NCBI GenBank assembly: GCA_048886685.1
Contig: JBHLKM010000001.1
Span: forward strand, 320,001-384,000
DNA from: Candidatus Hodarchaeota archaeon
Lineage (GTDB): Archaea > Asgardarchaeota > Lokiarchaeia > Sigyniarchaeales > SOKP01
Length of the DNA stretch: 64,000 bases
Direction of reading: 5' to 3'
Part shown: positions 28,757 to 37,518 of the stretch, one piece after another
Layout: the number at the start of each line of letters is the position of its first letter
Position numbering within the stretch: the first letter of the stretch is position 1
Program-made: the position numbers and the translations under genes
Notes under the pieces: generated by a model
The model's database searches: none
What the model saw: the letters and a program-made list of their open reading frames with translations, nothing else
What the model was told of the DNA's origin: nothing

Positions 28757-29608
28757 TCAATCTTCTTGTTCTATATTTTCTTGCTCTTTAGTTTCCTCAA
28801 TTTGTTCATTTTTTGATTGTTCTTCAATTGGTTGTTCTTCAATTCCTAACTGAGTAACCATTGCTAGTTTTAGCTGATGTTTATCTTTTGGTAATCCGAA
28901 CATATCAGCATATTTATCTGTTGTTGTTAATTCATGAGTTCTCCCTTTTTTTACAGCATCTATAAAACCATTATCGATAAGATAATTTATGTGTTCATAG
29001 GCTCCTGTTCCTCTCAATTTAATAACAGTTGATTTTAAAATGGGTTGCTTTAAAGCAATTACCGTTAACGTTCGAAGATAACGCTCTGCTATTGCACCAC
29101 CTTTAGCAAATTTAGATACTTTTTCTGTATATTCTGGTTTAATTTGCATTTGGTATCTGTCTCCTATTTGCGCAATTACTAATGCTGTTGAACGGTCGAG
29201 ATAGTCAAATGCAACTTCATTGATTAGTTCTTCTACTTCTTTTTTAGAAAATTCTAATTTATTAGATAATTCCTCTATAGTTAAAGGTCTACCAGCAGCA
29301 TATAAAGAGGCTTCGATTAAATTTCTATGGAATTCTCTCATTTTTTCTTCGAATGATTGCTCTTCAGTAATATCTTCTTCTAATGTTTCAATTTCAATTC
29401 TTTCTTCTAAATTTTCCATAGTTCGTTCTATAATTTCAGATTTTTCTTCTTGAGTTTCATCTGTGATAAATTCCTCGGATTCTACCTCATTTTCATTAAT
29501 CTTGTTCGATTCAATTTCTTCATTTGGGAGTTTTTCAGAGTCTTCTACTATTTCCTCTATCAAATCGTCCTCTTGTGCTTCTTTGAGTTCTTTATCAAAA
29601 CTATTCAT
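28757..29608 (-). CDS. scpB: ScpB (kite subunit) with long acidic N-terminal extension
   Basis: IEASLYAAGRPL, LRTLTVIALKQPI, IKLRG, TTDKYADMFGL; downstream of smc-scpA. Confidence 0.93.
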   Translation of the reverse strand: MNSFDKELKEAQEDDLIEEIVEDSEKLPNEEIESNKINENEVESEEFITDETQEEKSEIIERTMENLEERIEIETLEEDITEEQSFEEKMREFHRNLIEASLYAAGRPLTIEELSNKLEFSKKEVEELINEVAFDYLDRSTALVIAQIGDRYQMQIKPEYTEKVSKFAKGGAIAERYLRTLTVIALKQPILKSTVIKLRGTGAYEHINYLIDNGFIDAVKKGRTHELTTTDKYADMFGLPKDKHQLKLAMVTQLGIEEQPIEEQSKNEQIEETKEQENIEQED

Positions 29609-29638: not shown

Positions 29639-30637
29639 TTATTTAATATCTACTGAAATGTCTCTGAAGTCTTCATCTTGAGCCAAAGTTAATTTATTTC
29701 CTGTGGAAAGAAACATTAGCGCTAAAAACATTCTTACGAGAGCAAATTTTCTGCCTATACTAGTCTCTTCTTCATCTTTTATTATATTTGTTAAATCATA
29801 GAAACTAGTATCCTTGTTGTTTAAATTTATTGTACCCTTAATCCTATTATACCATGATTCGTGTAATTCTTCAACGGTTTGTTCTCTCCCACTAATATGT
29901 TTTAATAATTCTTTTGGTAATTGGGCTTTAGATCTCATTTGGATTTTTTGTTGTTTTAATTCTTCCCGTCTCATTCTCCTTCTTCTTAGTTTTTCTTTAT
30001 TTTGCATTACTTCTATAATTGCTGATCGCATTGCATCAAATAACTCCTCTTTTGTTGCTATTTGCATCTTGGGTTGTATTGGTTGTGGTAATGCTTTTGG
30101 AATTGATCTTGAATGCCTTTGCCGAAATTTTTCTAGTTCTTCTTTTTTTTGAATTTGCTCTTCTTCCCTTATAATACTTGAGATTTTATAATGATGCAAA
30201 TTTGCTGATGTTTTCAGTGCAATACCAGAAATCTTATAATTTATTAATTCTTCATGAAGCATCTTATCAAAAAATTCATCAACTAAACTAGCTAAACCAT
30301 AAAAAGCTATTTCCGATTCTTTAGCTAATTCTGTGTCTAATAGGCTTGAAAATGGCGGTTTTTGCCAAAATTTCAAGTTTATTTTTTCTTTTCTTAATAA
30401 CGCGAGATCTTCATCCTCATCAAAACCAGCTACTAATTCTTCTTCCAATTCTTCGACTTCTTGGGATCGATCAATGAATTCAGGATGTGAAACTATTTTT
30501 TGTAATAATTCAATAATATCATTCTTTTTTGATTTAGACGGGATCTTTATATTATTTTTATTAGCAAACTCTCTTAATTGTTTCACAGTCCATTCATTAA
30601 AATTATATCCCTCACTGGAGTTCGGTTCTTTAGAAAT
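29639..30637 (-). CDS. scpA: ScpA kleisin with N-terminal SAP/HeH-like domain; probable ATT start at 30637
   Basis: INYKISGIAL..A.L...K N-kleisin helix; C-terminal VRMFLALMFL...LAQDEDFRDI winged helix; lies between smc and scpB. The frame is open upstream of the GTG at 30586 as far as TGA 30646. Confidence 0.88.
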   Translation of the reverse strand: MSKEPNSSEGYNFNEWTVKQLREFANKNNIKIPSKSKKNDIIELLQKIVSHPEFIDRSQEVEELEEELVAGFDEDEDLALLRKEKINLKFWQKPPFSSLLDTELAKESEIAFYGLASLVDEFFDKMLHEELINYKISGIALKTSANLHHYKISSIIREEEQIQKKEELEKFRQRHSRSIPKALPQPIQPKMQIATKEELFDAMRSAIIEVMQNKEKLRRRRMRREELKQQKIQMRSKAQLPKELLKHISGREQTVEELHESWYNRIKGTINLNNKDTSFYDLTNIIKDEEETSIGRKFALVRMFLALMFLSTGNKLTLAQDEDFRDISVDIK

Positions 30638-30654: not shown

Positions 30655-33600
30655 TTAATTTTCAGTAACTGTTGGTTCAATATCTTCAAGTTCTAAAAGT
30701 CTCTTCGCCTCTTCCTCTAAATCTACGCTAAAGATATCCGTTATACCACTTTGCTGCATAGAAACGCCATAAATTCTGTCTGAATTTACGATATTCTCCT
30801 CTCTATGGCTAATGACCAAGAATTGCGCTTGACTGGAAAATTCCTTTATAACCATCGAAGTTCTATGTACATTGGGACCATCCAAGGCCGCATCGATCTC
30901 GTCCATAATATAGAACGGCGCGGGATAGAACTCCTGCACGGCAAAGATGAACGAGAGCGCCACAAGAGTTTTTTCACCCCCACTTAAAATTTCGAGGCTT
31001 GAAATTTTTTTCCCGCGCGGTCGAGCTTCGATGCTGATACCACCTTCGAAGGGCTTATCGGGACGGTCTAAAATCATTTTAGCAGAACCACCAGGAGAAA
31101 GTTTTTGAAATATCCGAGAGAATTCTCGATTAATTTCATGATAAGCTTTCATGAATGTACGTGTTTTTTCTAATTCAATTTTATCTATGGCATCGAGGAT
31201 TGATTTTCTTTCCCTTTGGATGGTTTGTCTTCGCATATCAATCTCATCAAATCTTTCCTTTACAGTATCATATTGTTCAATTGCTTTCAAATTAACTGGT
31301 TCAAGAGTTTTTTTATTATTAATTACTTCTACAATTTCAGATTGCAATTCTGGTTCCGAAAGATCCTCTGTAACAGGAGGTAGTGAGCCATATTCTTTAG
31401 AACGTTGAAATAAAGTTTCTATTTGATCCGCACAAATGATCTTTTTGGATTCAAAACTGTTCTTCTTTGAATTTTCCATTGATTGATCTGATTTTAAATC
31501 TGTAATAGTCTTTTGGTATTGCTTTTGTTTCTTCCAAGATTCATCTTTTTCTTGAGTATAATTATCGATCTCCTCCTGTTTTGCATCCTTTTTCCCATTT
31601 TCAGTTTCTAATTCACTTTTAAAATTTTCTAGTTCTTTCATTACAGATTCTATTTGATTTTCAGTATCAATGATTTCTTGATTTAATTCAAGAATTTTTT
31701 GTTCTCTTTCTTTATTCTTATTTAACTCATTTAATCTTTTTTGATGTTTTTGTTGATCCTTATTAAATTTGTTTAATTTCTTTTGGGCGGCTTTTTGTGC
31801 TTCTACTTCTTTAGTTTTCTCACCCCTTAAGGAATCTATTACACTTTGTTTTTGGTCAACATTTACTTGGATCTTATCAACTTCAGAGTTAAGTTCATCT
31901 ACGTTTTTTAGACAAACTTCAACATCATTTTTTGCTTCAATATTCTCTTTTTTAATGTCTTCAATTGAGTTAATGATTCTCATTACGTTTTCAAGTGCGC
32001 GTAGGCGGTCCATGATGTCTTCTAATTCTAGATTTTTTCCTTCGATCTGTTTCTGAATGTTTTCACTTATTTCCCAGAATTTTTCTTTCTGTGAAGTAAG
32101 ATCGTTAATTTCATTTTGAAATGAAGTTTGTTCTTCATGTAATTTTTCAATACTTTCTTCTGTATTAATAATTAAATTTTTCTTTTCTTCGATTGAATTG
32201 TTTATTGTTTGAATATTTTCCTCAATTTCTGATAAATTTTCGAATAAATTCTGAATTCCATGTAATTCCTGCAGATTTTCTCTTAATTTTTCTAATTCTG
32301 CTTGTTCTTTTTCAATGTCCTCTTGAATTTTAGAGATATCATCCCAGTAAGTATCTTTTAGCTCCTCTAATTTCTTTATTTCTTCATCTAATTCTTTAAT
32401 TTCTTTTTCCCTTTCGTTAATTAATTCGTTTCTTTCATTTATTTCTTCTTCAGCTTTTTTAATTCTATCAAGTATCTCTTGATTTCTTTTATTTATTTCT
32501 TCGAGTCTTCGATTAAAAGCAGAAAGATTTTCAGAATCGTGTCTTTTTTGAAGGTTGGCCTCTGTTAATCTTTTCTCAGTGAGATTAAAATCATCCATCT
32601 GAGAGTTTATGTTTTCCGAAATTTCATCAAGTTGTTTGTATAATTCTTGACTCTTTGACATGGTTAGCTTTCTTAAGGATAGGTAAACGTTCTCAAGAAT
32701 TTCCATAAGATCTTGAACAAAATTATCGAAAGTAGTAGTTGAAGCTTGAACTTCTACGTCAGCAGACTCCTTCACTCTCTCAATTAATTGCCCTATTGTG
32801 TCATCAGCATTATCAGTAAATAATTTTAAAGTTTCCATAATAGATTTTAGCATTTCTGTCATTTCTGTAGCTTGTTCTGTAGTATCCCCTATTTCCTCAA
32901 CAGTTCTCATTATATCTACAAGATCTAAAACGAATTTCTTAAAATCTTCAGCTGAAGTCTCAATTGCCTCTGCATTTGATTGCTGTATATTACTTTTTAT
33001 GGATTCAACGGAGATATTAATATTTTGAGTGAGCATGTTTAAAATCTGCAGAATCCCAGTAATATCTGTTGTATTTTTTTCATATTCAGCTTCAGAAGAT
33101 TCAATTTTTTTTAATATACTCTCTTTTTCTTTGGTAAGATCTTCTAAACGTCTTTGAATGTTCATATTTTTATTATTAAACTTTTCGAGATCTTTTTCAA
33201 TATCTAAAATGCTTTTATTCAAAGTAGATACTTGTAAATCTAAATTATTTTTCTCTCGCTCTAATTTAGTTGATTCTTTTGTAAATATTTTCAACTCAGT
33301 ATTAATATTTTCTATCTTTCCCTTGTTGTCATTGATTTCGGAGTCTAAAGAATATTTTTTCATCCGCAGCAATTCTAAATTTTGCTCATTTTTTTTGTAA
33401 ATTGAATTTTGTTCTCTTAATTGTCCTCTTAAATCATTTATTGTTTTGGTTCTATTCTCATTTTCTTTTAATAAATCTTTAACAGCATCCTCTGTATCTT
33501 TACCTTTACTCAATTCCTGAATTCTTTTCTCAATAGAAGTTTTTTTATCATTTAGATTATGAATATTATTGTTATTCATATTAATCTCAGTATTTAATGA

Positions 33601-35109
33601 AGATAAATTAGATTGTAGATTTAATAGTTTTGAATTTAGCTGGTTTTTCTCCTCTTGAATTGAAGTGATTTTATTCTCGAGAGCTTTTTGGTTTTGATTT
33701 TCTTCTACAATTTTAGCTTTTAGGTTATCTATCTGCTTTCTAATTTCGTTTTCTTCCTTTTTTGTATTTTTAATAGCTTCATCAATACTTTCTGCATCTT
33801 TTTTTAGTTTTGCTAACTCAGTTTCTAATTTTATTTTTTTATCTTCATTCTTTTTAATATTATCTTTAAGGACTTTAATTTGAGCTTTATTAGAAGATAT
33901 ATTTTGTTGTATTTTGGAGATTTCTGCATTAAACTGTGATTTTTCTTCCTCATTATCTCTAATTTTTGTATCTATTTCAGCCTGAGTTTGTTGTCTTTTT
34001 TCTATTTCTTTTTTGGCCTGTTCAATGATATTTTCACATTCAGATATATCATTTAAAGCGCTTTCTATCAATGAATCGATGCTTTGATCTTCTTCAAGAA
34101 TCATCTGTAGATTTTCTAAATTTTTAATTTCCTGGGTGAGTTTTTCAATTGATTTTCTGGCGAGGTTTGAAGTGGTTTGGCTGGAAGAGATTTTTGTTTT
34201 TAATTGTGTAATATTCTCATTAATTTCCTCTCTTTCTTTCTCTTTTTCATTTATATTTTTTTGAATGTTATCCATTACGAGTGACTCTTGTTTAAGTAAA
34301 GCCTCTTGTCTACTAATTTTTTCTTTTAATTCTTCAATAATTTTTAAAGAATTTTCTATTTTCTTTTCTAGATCATCTTCTTCTTCTCTTAACTTCGAAA
34401 TTTTTAGTGCTATCAATTGTGAATTTAAAAAATTAATTTTTTCATCTAATTCCTTCCACGCTAGAGCATCATTTTTCTCTTTTTCAACTTTTTTTAGTTG
34501 GGAGGAAACTTCTTTAAAAATTGCTTCAAATTGTCCTAAATCTCTCTCTGCTTTTTCCAATTCCTTTAGTGTTGCATCTTTCATTTCATCATACTTTTGA
34601 AGTCCGATTAGATCCTCAATGAAAAATCTACGTTCTTCTGTATTCATATGTGTTAATTCAACTATCTTACCTTGCAGAACAAACTGATTGCTACCATCAG
34701 GATCAATATTTGCTGCGGCTAAAGCGTTAAGAATTTGCTGACGCGTGGTGTTTTTTCCATTCATTTTGTATCCACCCCCACCACCTCTCTTTATTGTACG
34801 GGTGATTTCAAATGTGTCAGTCCCTCCAGGAAATACATTATCAGAATTATCAAAATACATTGTTACTGATGCTCTTTGTGACGGGTTTTTCCCTCTAGAA
34901 CCTGCAAAAATTAGATCTTCTAAACTCTTAGCCCTCATTGTTTTTTTACTTAACCTCCCTAAGGCGAAGCAAAGAGCATCTATGATATTAGATTTACCTG
35001 CACCATTAGGCCCTACTATGCATGTAAAACCACTTGAAAGTTTGATTGTTACTGTGCGATCTCCAAATGACTTAAAACCAGTCATCGAAATTTTTTTAAT
35101 GTAAGTCAT
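30655..35109 (-). CDS. smc: Smc ATPase (1484 aa) with atypical central domain
   Basis: GFKSF, GPNGAGKSN, VLQG (Q-loop), PVNLKA, LSGGEK, MDEIDAALD, VISH; long coiled coils. Confidence 0.96.
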   Translation of the reverse strand: MTYIKKISMTGFKSFGDRTVTIKLSSGFTCIVGPNGAGKSNIIDALCFALGRLSKKTMRAKSLEDLIFAGSRGKNPSQRASVTMYFDNSDNVFPGGTDTFEITRTIKRGGGGGYKMNGKNTTRQQILNALAAANIDPDGSNQFVLQGKIVELTHMNTEERRFFIEDLIGLQKYDEMKDATLKELEKAERDLGQFEAIFKEVSSQLKKVEKEKNDALAWKELDEKINFLNSQLIALKISKLREEEDDLEKKIENSLKIIEELKEKISRQEALLKQESLVMDNIQKNINEKEKEREEINENITQLKTKISSSQTTSNLARKSIEKLTQEIKNLENLQMILEEDQSIDSLIESALNDISECENIIEQAKKEIEKRQQTQAEIDTKIRDNEEEKSQFNAEISKIQQNISSNKAQIKVLKDNIKKNEDKKIKLETELAKLKKDAESIDEAIKNTKKEENEIRKQIDNLKAKIVEENQNQKALENKITSIQEEKNQLNSKLLNLQSNLSSLNTEINMNNNNIHNLNDKKTSIEKRIQELSKGKDTEDAVKDLLKENENRTKTINDLRGQLREQNSIYKKNEQNLELLRMKKYSLDSEINDNKGKIENINTELKIFTKESTKLEREKNNLDLQVSTLNKSILDIEKDLEKFNNKNMNIQRRLEDLTKEKESILKKIESSEAEYEKNTTDITGILQILNMLTQNINISVESIKSNIQQSNAEAIETSAEDFKKFVLDLVDIMRTVEEIGDTTEQATEMTEMLKSIMETLKLFTDNADDTIGQLIERVKESADVEVQASTTTFDNFVQDLMEILENVYLSLRKLTMSKSQELYKQLDEISENINSQMDDFNLTEKRLTEANLQKRHDSENLSAFNRRLEEINKRNQEILDRIKKAEEEINERNELINEREKEIKELDEEIKKLEELKDTYWDDISKIQEDIEKEQAELEKLRENLQELHGIQNLFENLSEIEENIQTINNSIEEKKNLIINTEESIEKLHEEQTSFQNEINDLTSQKEKFWEISENIQKQIEGKNLELEDIMDRLRALENVMRIINSIEDIKKENIEAKNDVEVCLKNVDELNSEVDKIQVNVDQKQSVIDSLRGEKTKEVEAQKAAQKKLNKFNKDQQKHQKRLNELNKNKEREQKILELNQEIIDTENQIESVMKELENFKSELETENGKKDAKQEEIDNYTQEKDESWKKQKQYQKTITDLKSDQSMENSKKNSFESKKIICADQIETLFQRSKEYGSLPPVTEDLSEPELQSEIVEVINNKKTLEPVNLKAIEQYDTVKERFDEIDMRRQTIQRERKSILDAIDKIELEKTRTFMKAYHEINREFSRIFQKLSPGGSAKMILDRPDKPFEGGISIEARPRGKKISSLEILSGGEKTLVALSFIFAVQEFYPAPFYIMDEIDAALDGPNVHRTSMVIKEFSSQAQFLVISHREENIVNSDRIYGVSMQQSGITDIFSVDLEEEAKRLLELEDIEPTVTEN

Positions 35110-35235: not shown

Positions 35236-36429
35236 TTAGTAATTATCAAACAAGGTATCTATAATTGCTTTTAATTGATTAGGGCTTATTACCATGAAGT
35301 AAGAGTCTGTATTTGTAGTATTATCTAAGAAATGAGGCTTTTTTATTCGTAACGCCTTTTTCGAGAGTCTTAGTATTCCAATATTTAATAATTCTTTAAT
35401 TAAGTTCTGGAATTCGTTTACATTTTTCTCATATTCTAAAGATTCACAAGATATATAATATAATTCTTCTAATTCCTTTAAAGAAACGTAATAATTTATC
35501 TTACTAATGAAATAATTTGAAAGATTATCCAAAAATATTATAGTTAAAAAATCCTCTTCAGAAATGTAATTTAAGATACTAAACTCATCATGAATTTGCA
35601 TTTGATCAAAATGAGTTTGACAAAGTTCTATTAGTTCACAATTTTTAATAATTTGTTTATTTTTTAATATTGGATATAGATCTCGAAGAATTTCAATTCC
35701 TTTTCCTGGAACAGGAACATACTGTTCACAGACTAAATCTGTTATATATTTAATTAATTCCTCATCCACCGTATGTGAAATTGTTAATAAAGTTCGTTGT
35801 TTTAAGATAGAATATAATTCCTTGTATGTGAAATAATTCAACTTTTTTTTTAAATCGAACTCAGATAATAAATCAATTGTTATAGGCCGCAAAATTTTAT
35901 TTATTGTATATATGGAAGTAATGTTTATTTCTTTCCCAATATGCAAAAATTTCTTAAATATTTCAGGTTTCAAATATTCTACATTTGTAAAAACAAAAAA
36001 AAGATTATTATCGATTTTTCTGCATAATAATTTAAATACATTCCATAAATGTGATAGGTTTGAATTTAAGAGGGAGTCATAGTTAATATTGAACTTATGC
36101 ATATTTAATAATTCTGTTAATATTGAGAATATCAATTCTTCGAAATTTTTTTCTTTGCAATCAATATAAATTTTATGAATATCAATATTATCTTCATTTT
36201 GTAGTGATAGATCATTGATTACTTTATTCACAATTGCTTTTTTCCCAATTCCATTAATGCCTTGATATAAAATATTGAGATTGAACTCATCAGATATTGA
36301 ATCACGCAAAATAGAAATTAATGAGTTCTGTTCTTTCTTACGGTACAACAATTGAGGGGGGATATAATTCGGGTCAAATAAAGCTTTAGGTCCAACAAAA
36401 TTTTGACTAATATCTAGTTTAAATGTCAT
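35236..36429 (-). CDS. Degenerate Cdc6/Orc1-family AAA+ protein
   Basis: LFDPNYIPPQLLYR, YQGINGIGKK (altered Walker A), YIDC, YTYKELYSILKQR, C-terminal winged helix (LKELEELY...C...LLNIGIL). Confidence 0.8.
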   Translation of the reverse strand: MTFKLDISQNFVGPKALFDPNYIPPQLLYRKKEQNSLISILRDSISDEFNLNILYQGINGIGKKAIVNKVINDLSLQNEDNIDIHKIYIDCKEKNFEELIFSILTELLNMHKFNINYDSLLNSNLSHLWNVFKLLCRKIDNNLFFVFTNVEYLKPEIFKKFLHIGKEINITSIYTINKILRPITIDLLSEFDLKKKLNYFTYKELYSILKQRTLLTISHTVDEELIKYITDLVCEQYVPVPGKGIEILRDLYPILKNKQIIKNCELIELCQTHFDQMQIHDEFSILNYISEEDFLTIIFLDNLSNYFISKINYYVSLKELEELYYISCESLEYEKNVNEFQNLIKELLNIGILRLSKKALRIKKPHFLDNTTNTDSYFMVISPNQLKAIIDTLFDNY

Positions 36430-36561: not shown

Positions 36562-37518
36562 TCATTCAAAACTTTCCAATAAATTTTTCAGGTTATCAGC
36601 TAAAATGGGTAAGTATTCATAAGACTTGTTTTTTACATTTTTATTTAAACAAAGCGTAACCAAATAAAATCGAGTATTGTTAATATCTAGTTTTCTAAGA
36701 AAAATTATACCTTCTTTTTGAGACTCTGAGCGTTCTTGTGAAAATTCGATATTAGTTACAATATCGACAGTGCTTATATCCCATTCCTCTAATTTTTCTA
36801 ATGCTTGAGTTAATCTTGGGGCTACAGACTCACATATCTTCTGATAATCATCATCTGTAGATCTGCTGGCAATTATAAAACAATTTTGGTCTAACAAAAG
36901 TGTAGAGCTATTGTATGTTTTGCTCATGTAGTCCTTTAGTAGAGTTTGAAACATATTAGACTTATAAGTAGCATAAAAAGCACCATCAGAAAAAGCTTTT
37001 AATAAGGTTGGAGCATCATAAATTGAAGTTCTAAAAATAGAATATTTTATATCTTTAATAATTGATGAGATTTTTGATTCAAAAAAGGATATATTTTCCA
37101 ATATTTCCTTCCTTTTTTTAATATCTGGGTCACATTTGTGTAATAATATTAAGAATTGAAAATTGTCAGGATGGGAATCTGTAGTAATAGCTACGATATC
37201 TTTTAGAAAAATTAATGATTCTTCAAATTTTTCAGGTACTTGTATATCTATAACATAAAATATTGATTGCATATCAGTAAAATATTTGCTTTTATCACCT
37301 AAGTATATTTTTCTATAACTTTTTTGGCCTCCCAAATCCCAACGGATAAGTGAAATTCCTAATAAGGAGTTAGTATGAACAGTTCTTTTAGCTTTTATGG
37401 TAGGTTTAACAGTTGGTAATAAACTAAACTTTTTATCTAATAATAGCAGAATCGATGTTTTGCCCCCGTTTTCTAACCCGCAAAAAAGGATCTTTTTAAG
37501 TTCTTTAGATTTGCTCAT
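36562..37518 (-). CDS. Small GTPase (Arf/Rag-like) with C-terminal roadblock/longin-like domain
   Basis: GLENGGKTS, PT, WDLGGQ, HKCD, TSIY; about 130-aa alpha/beta tail. Confidence 0.88.
   Translation of the reverse strand: MSKSKELKKILFCGLENGGKTSILLLLDKKFSLLPTVKPTIKAKRTVHTNSLLGISLIRWDLGGQKSYRKIYLGDKSKYFTDMQSIFYVIDIQVPEKFEESLIFLKDIVAITTDSHPDNFQFLILLHKCDPDIKKRKEILENISFFESKISSIIKDIKYSIFRTSIYDAPTLLKAFSDGAFYATYKSNMFQTLLKDYMSKTYNSSTLLLDQNCFIIASRSTDDDYQKICESVAPRLTQALEKLEEWDISTVDIVTNIEFSQERSESQKEGIIFLRKLDINNTRFYLVTLCLNKNVKNKSYEYLPILADNLKNLLESFE

Follow-up and report, generated by a model that had tools for sequence, protein, structure and literature searches.

This analysis concerns an smc-like gene and its operon in a 64,000-nucleotide (nt) stretch of DNA (the 'window') from Candidatus Hodarchaeota archaeon, an Asgard archaeon of the class Lokiarchaeia (GenBank assembly GCA_048886685.1, contig JBHLKM010000001.1, positions 320,001 to 384,000 of the forward strand). 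The gene encodes a protein of 1484 amino acids (aa) that has no detectable hinge, and each strand of its long coiled-coil arm carries four tandem repeat units. The parts of the locus on which the argument rests are given below, in window coordinates.

30655..35109, minus strand: smc-like gene P0001, 1484 aa from open reading frame and translation; an SMC-family ATPase with no detectable hinge domain.
34600..35109, minus strand: N-terminal half of the head, aa 1-170; Pfam SMC_N match over aa 3-138, with Walker A GPNGAGKSN read from the translation.
30658..31248, minus strand: C-terminal half of the head, aa 1288-1484; match to SMC_N profile positions 95-219, with signature LSGGEK and Walker B MDEIDAALD read from the translation.
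32698..33114, minus strand: helical tip in the place of the hinge, aa 666-804; two similar helices of ~68 aa, 71 aa apart, with a turn at aa 741-746.
29639..30586, minus strand: scpA-like kleisin gene, 315 aa; weak Pfam SMC_ScpA match (E 0.0018).
28757..29608, minus strand: scpB gene, 283 aa; Pfam SMC_ScpB, 116.5 bits.

The gene order is smc-scpA-scpB, with smc first and the genes for the kleisin and kite partners directly downstream; both partner genes are also present in a sister class of shorter, 1296-aa proteins, to which we return below. Across 17 loci fetched from relatives, scpA follows smc in 15 and scpB in 14, counts that have to be read with the fact that several of these loci stop at a contig edge. 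Pfam assigns the protein to SMC_N (127 bits) and to no other specific domain, and in a search of the whole genome both halves of the head match the same profile (130 bits for the N-terminal and 106 bits for the C-terminal half). The SMC hinge (PF06470), which scores 26-111 bits in the ~1200-aa Smc paralogues and orthologues used for comparison, was not matched within aa 600-900 even at E<=1, nor anywhere in the whole 1484-aa protein. What sits in its place is a pair of helices that are alike (hhalign comparison N5-H, E 1.6e-11), joined by a turn that an AlphaFold2 (AF2) model puts at aa 741-746; the model is of aa 245-1275 as a monomer, made from an 18-sequence alignment, with a predicted local distance difference test score (pLDDT) of 77.5 that falls to low values over aa 675-825. 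A reading of the tip sequence found no CxxC zinc hook. The tip domain is also rare, such that a query of aa 640-860 matched 36 clusters among 1.84 billion cluster representatives. With its heads and its kleisin and kite neighbours kept, and its hinge undetected by Pfam, the protein is a hinge-less variant of Smc-ScpAB and not a plain member of that group.

Within the arm, the strand that runs from the head to the tip (the 'N arm') is made up of four tandem units over aa 245-635, spaced by 97, 98 and 97 residues, and the returning strand (the 'C arm') of four units over about aa 860-1219, spaced by exactly 90 residues. Each is given here with its AF2 helix breaks, its shifts in heptad register and its profile comparisons (hhalign E-values).

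34084..34377, minus strand: N1, aa 245-342; ends at the helix break at aa 335-343 (AF2), register shift of -1 at ~aa 340; N1-N3 1.7e-10.
33790..34083, minus strand: N2, aa 343-440; starts SIDSLIE, AF2 break at aa 436-441; N2-N3 6e-17.
33499..33789, minus strand: N3, aa 441-537; starts SIDEAIK; supported by hhalign, without a one-to-one partner in the 1296-aa class (unit tree).
33205..33498, minus strand: N4, aa 538-635; starts DTEDAVK after the break at aa 535-538, register shift at ~aa 541; N3-N4 6e-12.
32263..32532, minus strand: S0, aa 860-949; ends at the AF2 break at aa 949-952, register shift at ~aa 950; S0-S1 1.2e-11.
31993..32262, minus strand: S1, aa 950-1039; holds W1012, AF2 break at aa 1041, register shift at ~aa 1041; S1-S2 2.6e-11.
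31723..31992, minus strand: S2, aa 1040-1129; register shift at ~aa 1131; S2-S3 6.2e-11.
31453..31722, minus strand: S3, aa 1130-1219; holds W1192, invariant in the orthologues; boundary and Trp motifs kept in both length classes.

A tandem modular structure of the arms had first been put forward in a reading made from the DNA letters and their translations (the sequence-only reading), and the positions on which it was built hold. The anchors at the N-arm breaks, SIDSLIE, SIDEAIK and DTEDAVK, do start at aa 343, 441 and 538 (nt 34083, 33789 and 33498), and two motifs internal to the units start at aa 387 and 485, 98 residues apart. In the C arm the anchors ELKDTYW, SQKEKFW, GEKTKEV and QEKDESW have their last residues at aa 922, 1012, 1102 and 1192 (nt 32346, 32076, 31806 and 31536), each 90 residues from the next.

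A periodicity of this kind might be nothing more than heptad and compositional background in a sequence rich in Glu, Lys, Asn, Ile and Leu, with no true repeats beneath it, and some observations do lean that way: 97-98 residues is close to 14 heptads, windows compared across the two arms score up to 106, and without composition correction nearly every unit matches every other by BLAST. Autocorrelation with BLOSUM62 scores nevertheless places lag 90 at the top of 250 lags in the C arm (aa 860-1290; z 9.0), with lag 180 at z 5.9; these two exceed or equal the heptad lags 7 and 14, and 90 is not itself a multiple of seven. The corresponding values in the N arm are z 7.0 for lag 195 and z 5.1 for lag 98. 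Because the hydrophobic pattern itself accounts for part of this signal, we also used a null that keeps the pattern, in which residues are shuffled within hydrophobic and polar classes. Against these shuffles lag 90 is still first in the C arm (z 5.1) and lag 180 second (z 4.3), and in the N arm lags 195 and 98 come second and third (z 3.8 and 3.3), behind lag 35. For the best ungapped window of 90 residues the scores are 134 at lag 98 in the N arm and 100 at lag 90 in the C arm, values that were reached by 0/300 and 1/300 pattern-keeping shuffles, respectively, taking the maximum over all lags and positions.

Direct comparison of the units gives the same picture. BLAST of the uncut 1484-aa protein against itself returned the identity match only, and the units were compared separately instead; with composition correction the best pairs are then in-register neighbours, namely N2-N3 (E 4.7e-5; 31.6% identity across 95 ungapped residues), C1-C2 (5e-4) and N3-N4 (0.004), where C1-C3 denote the C-arm units in the frame of the sequence-only reading and S0-S3 those in the frame set by the helix breaks. 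More sensitive comparisons were made by hhalign between profiles cut from the alignment of 18 orthologues. In-register pairs align over their full length at offset 0 with scores of 41-90, both in the N arm (N2-N3 6e-17, N3-N4 6e-12, N1-N3 1.7e-10, N1-N2 7e-9) and in the C arm (C1-C2 6e-15, C2-C3 4e-8, C1-C3 1.8e-7), whereas every pair of one N and one C unit scores 30 or less at scattered offsets, which serves as an internal measure of coiled-coil background. The same lags lead in each orthologue tested, down to 42% identity, and among 11 control SMC-family proteins of relatives (~1155-1260 aa; nine ordinary ~1200-aa Smc and two divergent paralogues) we found no dominant long lag and short heptad lags only. 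Taken with a sister clade that differs by exactly one unit per arm, as described below, these results make a mere background of heptads and composition very improbable; pattern-keeping shuffles, profile comparisons and the best-window test all place the self-similarity above it, contrary to the first of the two outcomes by which the sequence-only reading said that it would be refuted.

Recurring lags between the arms had also hinted that N and C units might descend from one proto-unit used on both strands. We dropped this idea on the profile scores of 30 or less and the scattered offsets just mentioned.

Likeness between units could also arise by convergence, if a periodic constraint (regularly spaced contacts between the arms of the dimer, or with a partner or DNA, much as tropomyosin meets its actin sites) had shaped them, and no duplication had taken place. 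Selection does appear to keep periodic features here, in that the joint motifs and the Trp residues at 90-residue spacing (W922, W1012, W1192) are conserved at 41% identity and in both length classes, and the similarity of the units at the DNA level is near background. Set against this, the protein similarity spans whole units and not a few sites, as the N2-N3 pair illustrates; units of the two length classes pair one-to-one in trees with 83-98% support, as descent predicts; and the N and C units are not mutually similar, though any constraint at the level of the arm would be common to both. We therefore consider convergence unlikely, and common descent of the units within each strand the better account.

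The units also correspond to physical segments of the arm. A heptad register map, drawn from the orthologue alignment, consists of long unbroken stretches with shifts of -1, two of them in the N arm (~aa 340 and 541) and three in the C arm (~aa 950, 1041 and 1131). Since the C-arm register drops by one at each border, a C unit amounts to 13 heptads minus one residue; the spacing of the N units equals 14 heptads, or 14 heptads minus one residue. The heptad pattern continues along the whole arm, and the AF2 model is an all-helical hairpin, broken in the N strand at aa 335-343, 436-441 and 535-538 and in the C strand at aa 949-952 and 1041, and looped at aa 1240-1251. Counted from the turn, the first joint comes after about 207 residues on either strand (536.5 and 950.5), and towards the head the sums of the break positions that would face each other drop from 1487 to about 1480 and then to 1470, a drop that the N-strand loops of 4-9 residues would absorb.

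Evidence from relatives bears on how such an arm changes in length. Smc lengths were surveyed in about 320 Asgard genomes, 119 from the class and 200 from the phylum. A long form of 1470-1500 aa occurs in two families of one order, and a single further copy lies in a genome outside these families; the other Asgard families with a match have Smc proteins of 1186-1237 aa in which Pfam detects the hinge, such that the 1484-aa protein is about 280 aa longer, close to the excess that the sequence-only reading had pointed out. Alignment of the window protein with 17 orthologues from relatives (41-82% identity) shows zero indels in either arm, and the length differences among these 18 long-form proteins are confined to 1-2 residues near aa 743-747 and 903-912, and to the termini. 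Complete proteins among the 36 tip-domain clusters measure 1464-1497 aa, plus one of 1296 aa with intact ends (P0139). The latter is one of a clade whose members measure 1290-1304 aa, share 65-70% identity with P0139 and are named as Sigynarchaeota or Lokiarchaeota SMC; the member from Candidatus Sigynarchaeum springense lies in an smc-scpA-scpB operon. No arm indel was found among 9 members of this 1296-aa class, and its helical tip is the same as that of the 1484-aa class.

By three independent alignments, the 1296-aa class has 97 aa less in the N arm, 90 aa less in the C arm and 5 aa less at the turn. The gaps fall as follows, in residues of the window protein.

hhalign, single sequence: N arm 506-608, C arm 829-961, as several nearby gaps.
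hhalign, profile against profile: N arm 495-591, C arm 862-958, as one block each or nearly so.
MAFFT: N arm 492-588, C arm 873-962, as one block each or nearly so.

The shorter class repeats the architecture with one unit fewer per strand. Lag 90 is again at the top in its C arm (P0139), its register map has two C-arm shifts versus three, and its AF2 model (pLDDT 80.6) is an all-helical hairpin with two N-arm loops versus three, in which the first joint again lies about 207 residues from the turn. Neither the 36 tip-domain clusters nor the roughly 320 Asgard genomes yielded a complete homologue whose length lay in between or whose two strands differed in unit number. The sequence-only reading had proposed a check for steps of about 188 aa in Smc length, and its outcome is positive: the sister clade differs by one 97-aa and one 90-aa block, and homologue lengths are quantised and not continuous, contrary to the second outcome that would have refuted that reading. 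We also tried to derive the long form from ordinary ~1200-aa Smc by such steps and dropped the attempt, as a global profile alignment scatters gaps in multiples of the heptad and does not allow an 'extra' unit to be assigned.

The same reading held that the arms had been lengthened by a coordinated duplication of one unit in both strands. Of this, the paired step of one unit stands; the trees and topology tests, set out here, are compatible with a gain and with a loss. In a full-length tree, built without the columns that carry the trait and rooted on the heads of ordinary Smc, the hinge-less family forms one clade (support 100) that splits into the 1296-aa class (100) and the 1484-aa class (90). 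Because these two are sister clades, the topology cannot polarise the change; a tree from heads only is a polytomy, with a paralogue from contig 14 of the same genome on a very long branch. Naming the units of the 1296-aa class n1-n3 and s0-s2, unit trees pair N1 with n1, N2 with n2, N4 with n3, S2 with s1 and S3 with s2 (83-98% support), leaving N3 and one of S0 and S1 without a one-to-one partner, each beside its neighbour in the unit trees. By approximately unbiased (AU) tests no alternative grouping is rejected (p 0.07-0.53), and the scores of quarter units fit a duplication by crossing-over as well as the reciprocal deletion.

It is quite possible, at a little under even chances, that the change ran in reverse, with four units ancestral in the hinge-less family and the 1296-aa class derived by paired deletion through unequal crossing-over, in which case this step involved no lengthening. 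N2 does pair with n2 (support 90) with N3 outside, and n3 looks like a hybrid whose first half resembles N3 and whose second half resembles N4, as a deletion by crossing-over would leave. On the other hand n2 is as close to N3 as it is to N2 (hhalign 73.8 versus 79.1), and S0, S1 and s0 form a three-way group in which a tree with S0 and S1 as sisters is equally likely; the AU tests and the sister-clade topology lend no polarity either way. Whichever way the class difference arose, the four units themselves must stem from earlier duplications.

Synthesising these findings, we propose a model for the arm of this complex, to which, taken as a whole, we would assign a probability of roughly 0.7: that of a hinge-less Smc-ScpAB with four repeat-derived arm segments per strand and changes by whole units on both strands. 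The protein would serve as the Smc subunit of a Smc-ScpA-ScpB complex in which an all-helical hairpin tip takes the place of the ordinary hinge, and its antiparallel coiled-coil arm would be a chain of four repeat-derived segments. Each segment would comprise 13 heptads minus one residue on the C strand (90 aa), and about 13 heptads plus a loop of 4-9 residues on the N strand (97-98 aa). We suggest that the N-strand loops lie opposite the places where the C strand shifts its register by one residue, and the arm would for that reason be split by three aligned joints into rods of ~13 nm. Tandem duplication, within the half of the gene that codes for each arm, probably gave rise to the units at a time before the order diverged, and their number would have been fixed since, at four per strand in the 1484-aa class and three in its sister. 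Arm length would then change only by a whole unit and on both strands at once, presumably because a whole unit, about as long as the 91-aa functional or the ~99-aa superhelical period of Smc arms, keeps the strands paired and holds the heads at an unchanged rotation with respect to the tip. The repeats with their borders, the operon, the two length classes and the absence of indels in the arms are observed, and the pairing of the strands, the equation of a unit with one superhelical period and the direction of the change are inferred. That arm length in the hinge-less Smc-ScpAB of Lokiarchaeia-type Asgard archaea evolves in this manner, by paired gain or loss of one ~90-residue unit with aligned joints between units, we hold to be somewhat probable. 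The further equation of a unit with 'one superhelical period' follows from a match of lengths and may be apt.

Several observations weigh against this model. The placement of N-arm breaks opposite C-arm breaks is deduced from break positions in a monomer AF2 model and not from contacts, and the AF2 models of both classes are of monomers, built from few sequences (18 and 10), with low predicted template modelling (pTM) scores and low confidence at the tip. Gap positions of the 1296-aa class in the two arms lie ~30 residues off exact physical partners, their placement within repeats being ambiguous. Steps of 188 aa do not add up to the excess of ~280 aa over ordinary Smc, which is to be expected given that the hinge has also been replaced by the helical tip. 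Mean arm length comes to about 483-555 aa (one unit less in the sister class), and its fit to modes of 515 and 423 aa found among natural arms, discussed below, depends on how the tip is delimited. At the DNA level the units are only weakly similar (N2/N3 53% versus a background of 38-41%), and Tandem Repeats Finder found no 270- or 294-nt repeat; we conclude that the duplications are old. Common descent of the units, though probable, is accordingly argued from protein-level similarity in a low-complexity fold.

How this arm relates to known systems can now be considered. Burmann et al. 2017 (Mol Cell, PMC5344682) found that the functional arm lengths of Bacillus subtilis Smc follow a period of 91 aa, near the superhelical period of ~99 aa, a point on which the sequence-only reading was accurate; in the same work natural prokaryotic arms cluster in steps of ~100 aa (modes 238, 341 and 515 aa; minor modes 163 and 423 aa), and the Rad50 zinc hook can stand in for the Smc hinge. 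The unit sizes described here match that period, with a natural step of 90 aa in the C arm and 97 aa in the N arm. The evidence of that study comes from engineered truncations, chimeras and length statistics; it reports neither sequence repeats in the arm nor sister clades one repeat apart, and uses 'repeat' only for tropomyosin and for heptads. Yoshinaga and Inagaki 2021 (PMC8665677) treat Asgard SMC proteins only phylogenetically, and in our literature searches no paper turned up that describes repeats in the sequence of SMC arms or an Asgard Smc without a hinge.

With the Smc of Bacillus subtilis and Pyrococcus and the ~1200-aa Asgard Smc the window protein shares a split ABC-type head with Walker A, signature and Walker B motifs, a long arm that, by prediction, is helical and doubles back on itself, and kleisin and kite genes directly downstream. 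Unlike ordinary Smc, it has no detectable hinge, its arms are about 150-200 aa longer per strand and consist of tandem units free of indels across an order, over a span of 41-91% identity, and its ScpA has an extra module at the N-terminus (HeH/LEM/Rho_N-like, Pfam E about 1e-3). Rad50/SbcC resembles it in having SMC-superfamily heads, long coiled coils (predicted to be antiparallel in the window protein) and a small tip that is not a hinge; the window protein differs in partnering ScpA/ScpB and not Mre11/SbcD, in lacking a CxxC hook, and in heads that group with Smc, as the SMC_N score shows. Tropomyosin offers a likeness of another kind, being a long coiled coil with a long-range period on top of its heptads that, by the summary in PMC5344682, tolerates deletions only of whole periods. 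It is, however, a parallel dimer with a period of ~40 aa tied to actin subunits, whereas the window Smc is predicted to be an antiparallel intramolecular coil with a period of 90-98 aa and joints between its units.

Other SMC-family genes were met in the survey. The ordinary form gave no match in the window's genome (G000) at E<=1e-20. Several genomes of the order have both a hinge-less 1484-aa Smc and a hinged ~1200-aa Smc (loci L027, L028, L032, L033, L036 and L037; genomes G054, G032, G044, G029, G017 and G078), and in three of these six loci the ordinary smc is accompanied by a distant ScpB-like neighbour of its own. A second SMC-like gene is also present in the window's genome, the contig-14 paralogue of the head tree (L035:3935-7402, plus strand), which encodes 1155 aa with a weak head match (65 bits); its Pfam hinge (29.7 bits) is the sole one matched in that genome. 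This protein, with its very long branch, is possibly an archaeal paralogue related to SMC5/6. Another family of the class has a 1260-aa SMC-family protein (L034:3995-7777, plus strand; genome G008) with neither a Pfam hinge match nor a long-range arm repeat. The long-form copy outside the two families (G251:C70:1627-6036, family f25) is about 1500 aa long and 45% identical, in a family whose other members have Smc proteins of ~1200-1220 aa, and could reflect a transfer or a mis-binned contig.

The tip search also returned seven proteins of 920-1180 aa (P0141, P0142, P0144, P0147, P0150, P0153 and P0156) with a weak match (22-29% identity) near the N-terminus, and Lys-rich tails resembling histone H1/HC2. 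They lack an SMC head, and could be either a free-standing relative of the tip or a coiled-coil family that has no kinship with it. In the window, the gene next to smc on its upstream side (35236-36429, minus strand) encodes a 397-aa protein that has no Pfam match and is kept in many relatives at 47-68% identity; it is followed by a RagA/Gtr1-like small GTPase gene (36562-37518, minus strand), an arrangement seen in several relatives. The window has a G+C content of about 29%, which together with this GTPase and with closest database proteins named as Promethearchaeota or Lokiarchaeia points to a Loki-type Asgard archaeon.

Finally, why SMC arm lengths are so sharply fixed is an open question, for which the main evidence so far has been an engineering screen in one bacterium together with length statistics. 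The natural step in arm length in this hinge-less family matches the steps of ~90 residues tolerated in the Bacillus engineering, and the family displays the rule in evolution, with repeat units of about one period, no indels over a long divergence and, as the sole length change seen, one unit per strand. If our model is correct, this would be direct, natural evidence at the level of sequence for a whole-period rule of SMC arms, and the two natural variants, one of 3+3 units (about 67 nm) and one of 4+4 (about 80 nm), would lend themselves to testing the role of arm length and phase in loop extrusion; the two length classes are, in any case, concrete constructs for structural and genetic tests. 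The hinge has here been dispensed with whilst ScpA and ScpB have been kept, and this in the archaeal group closest to eukaryotes.

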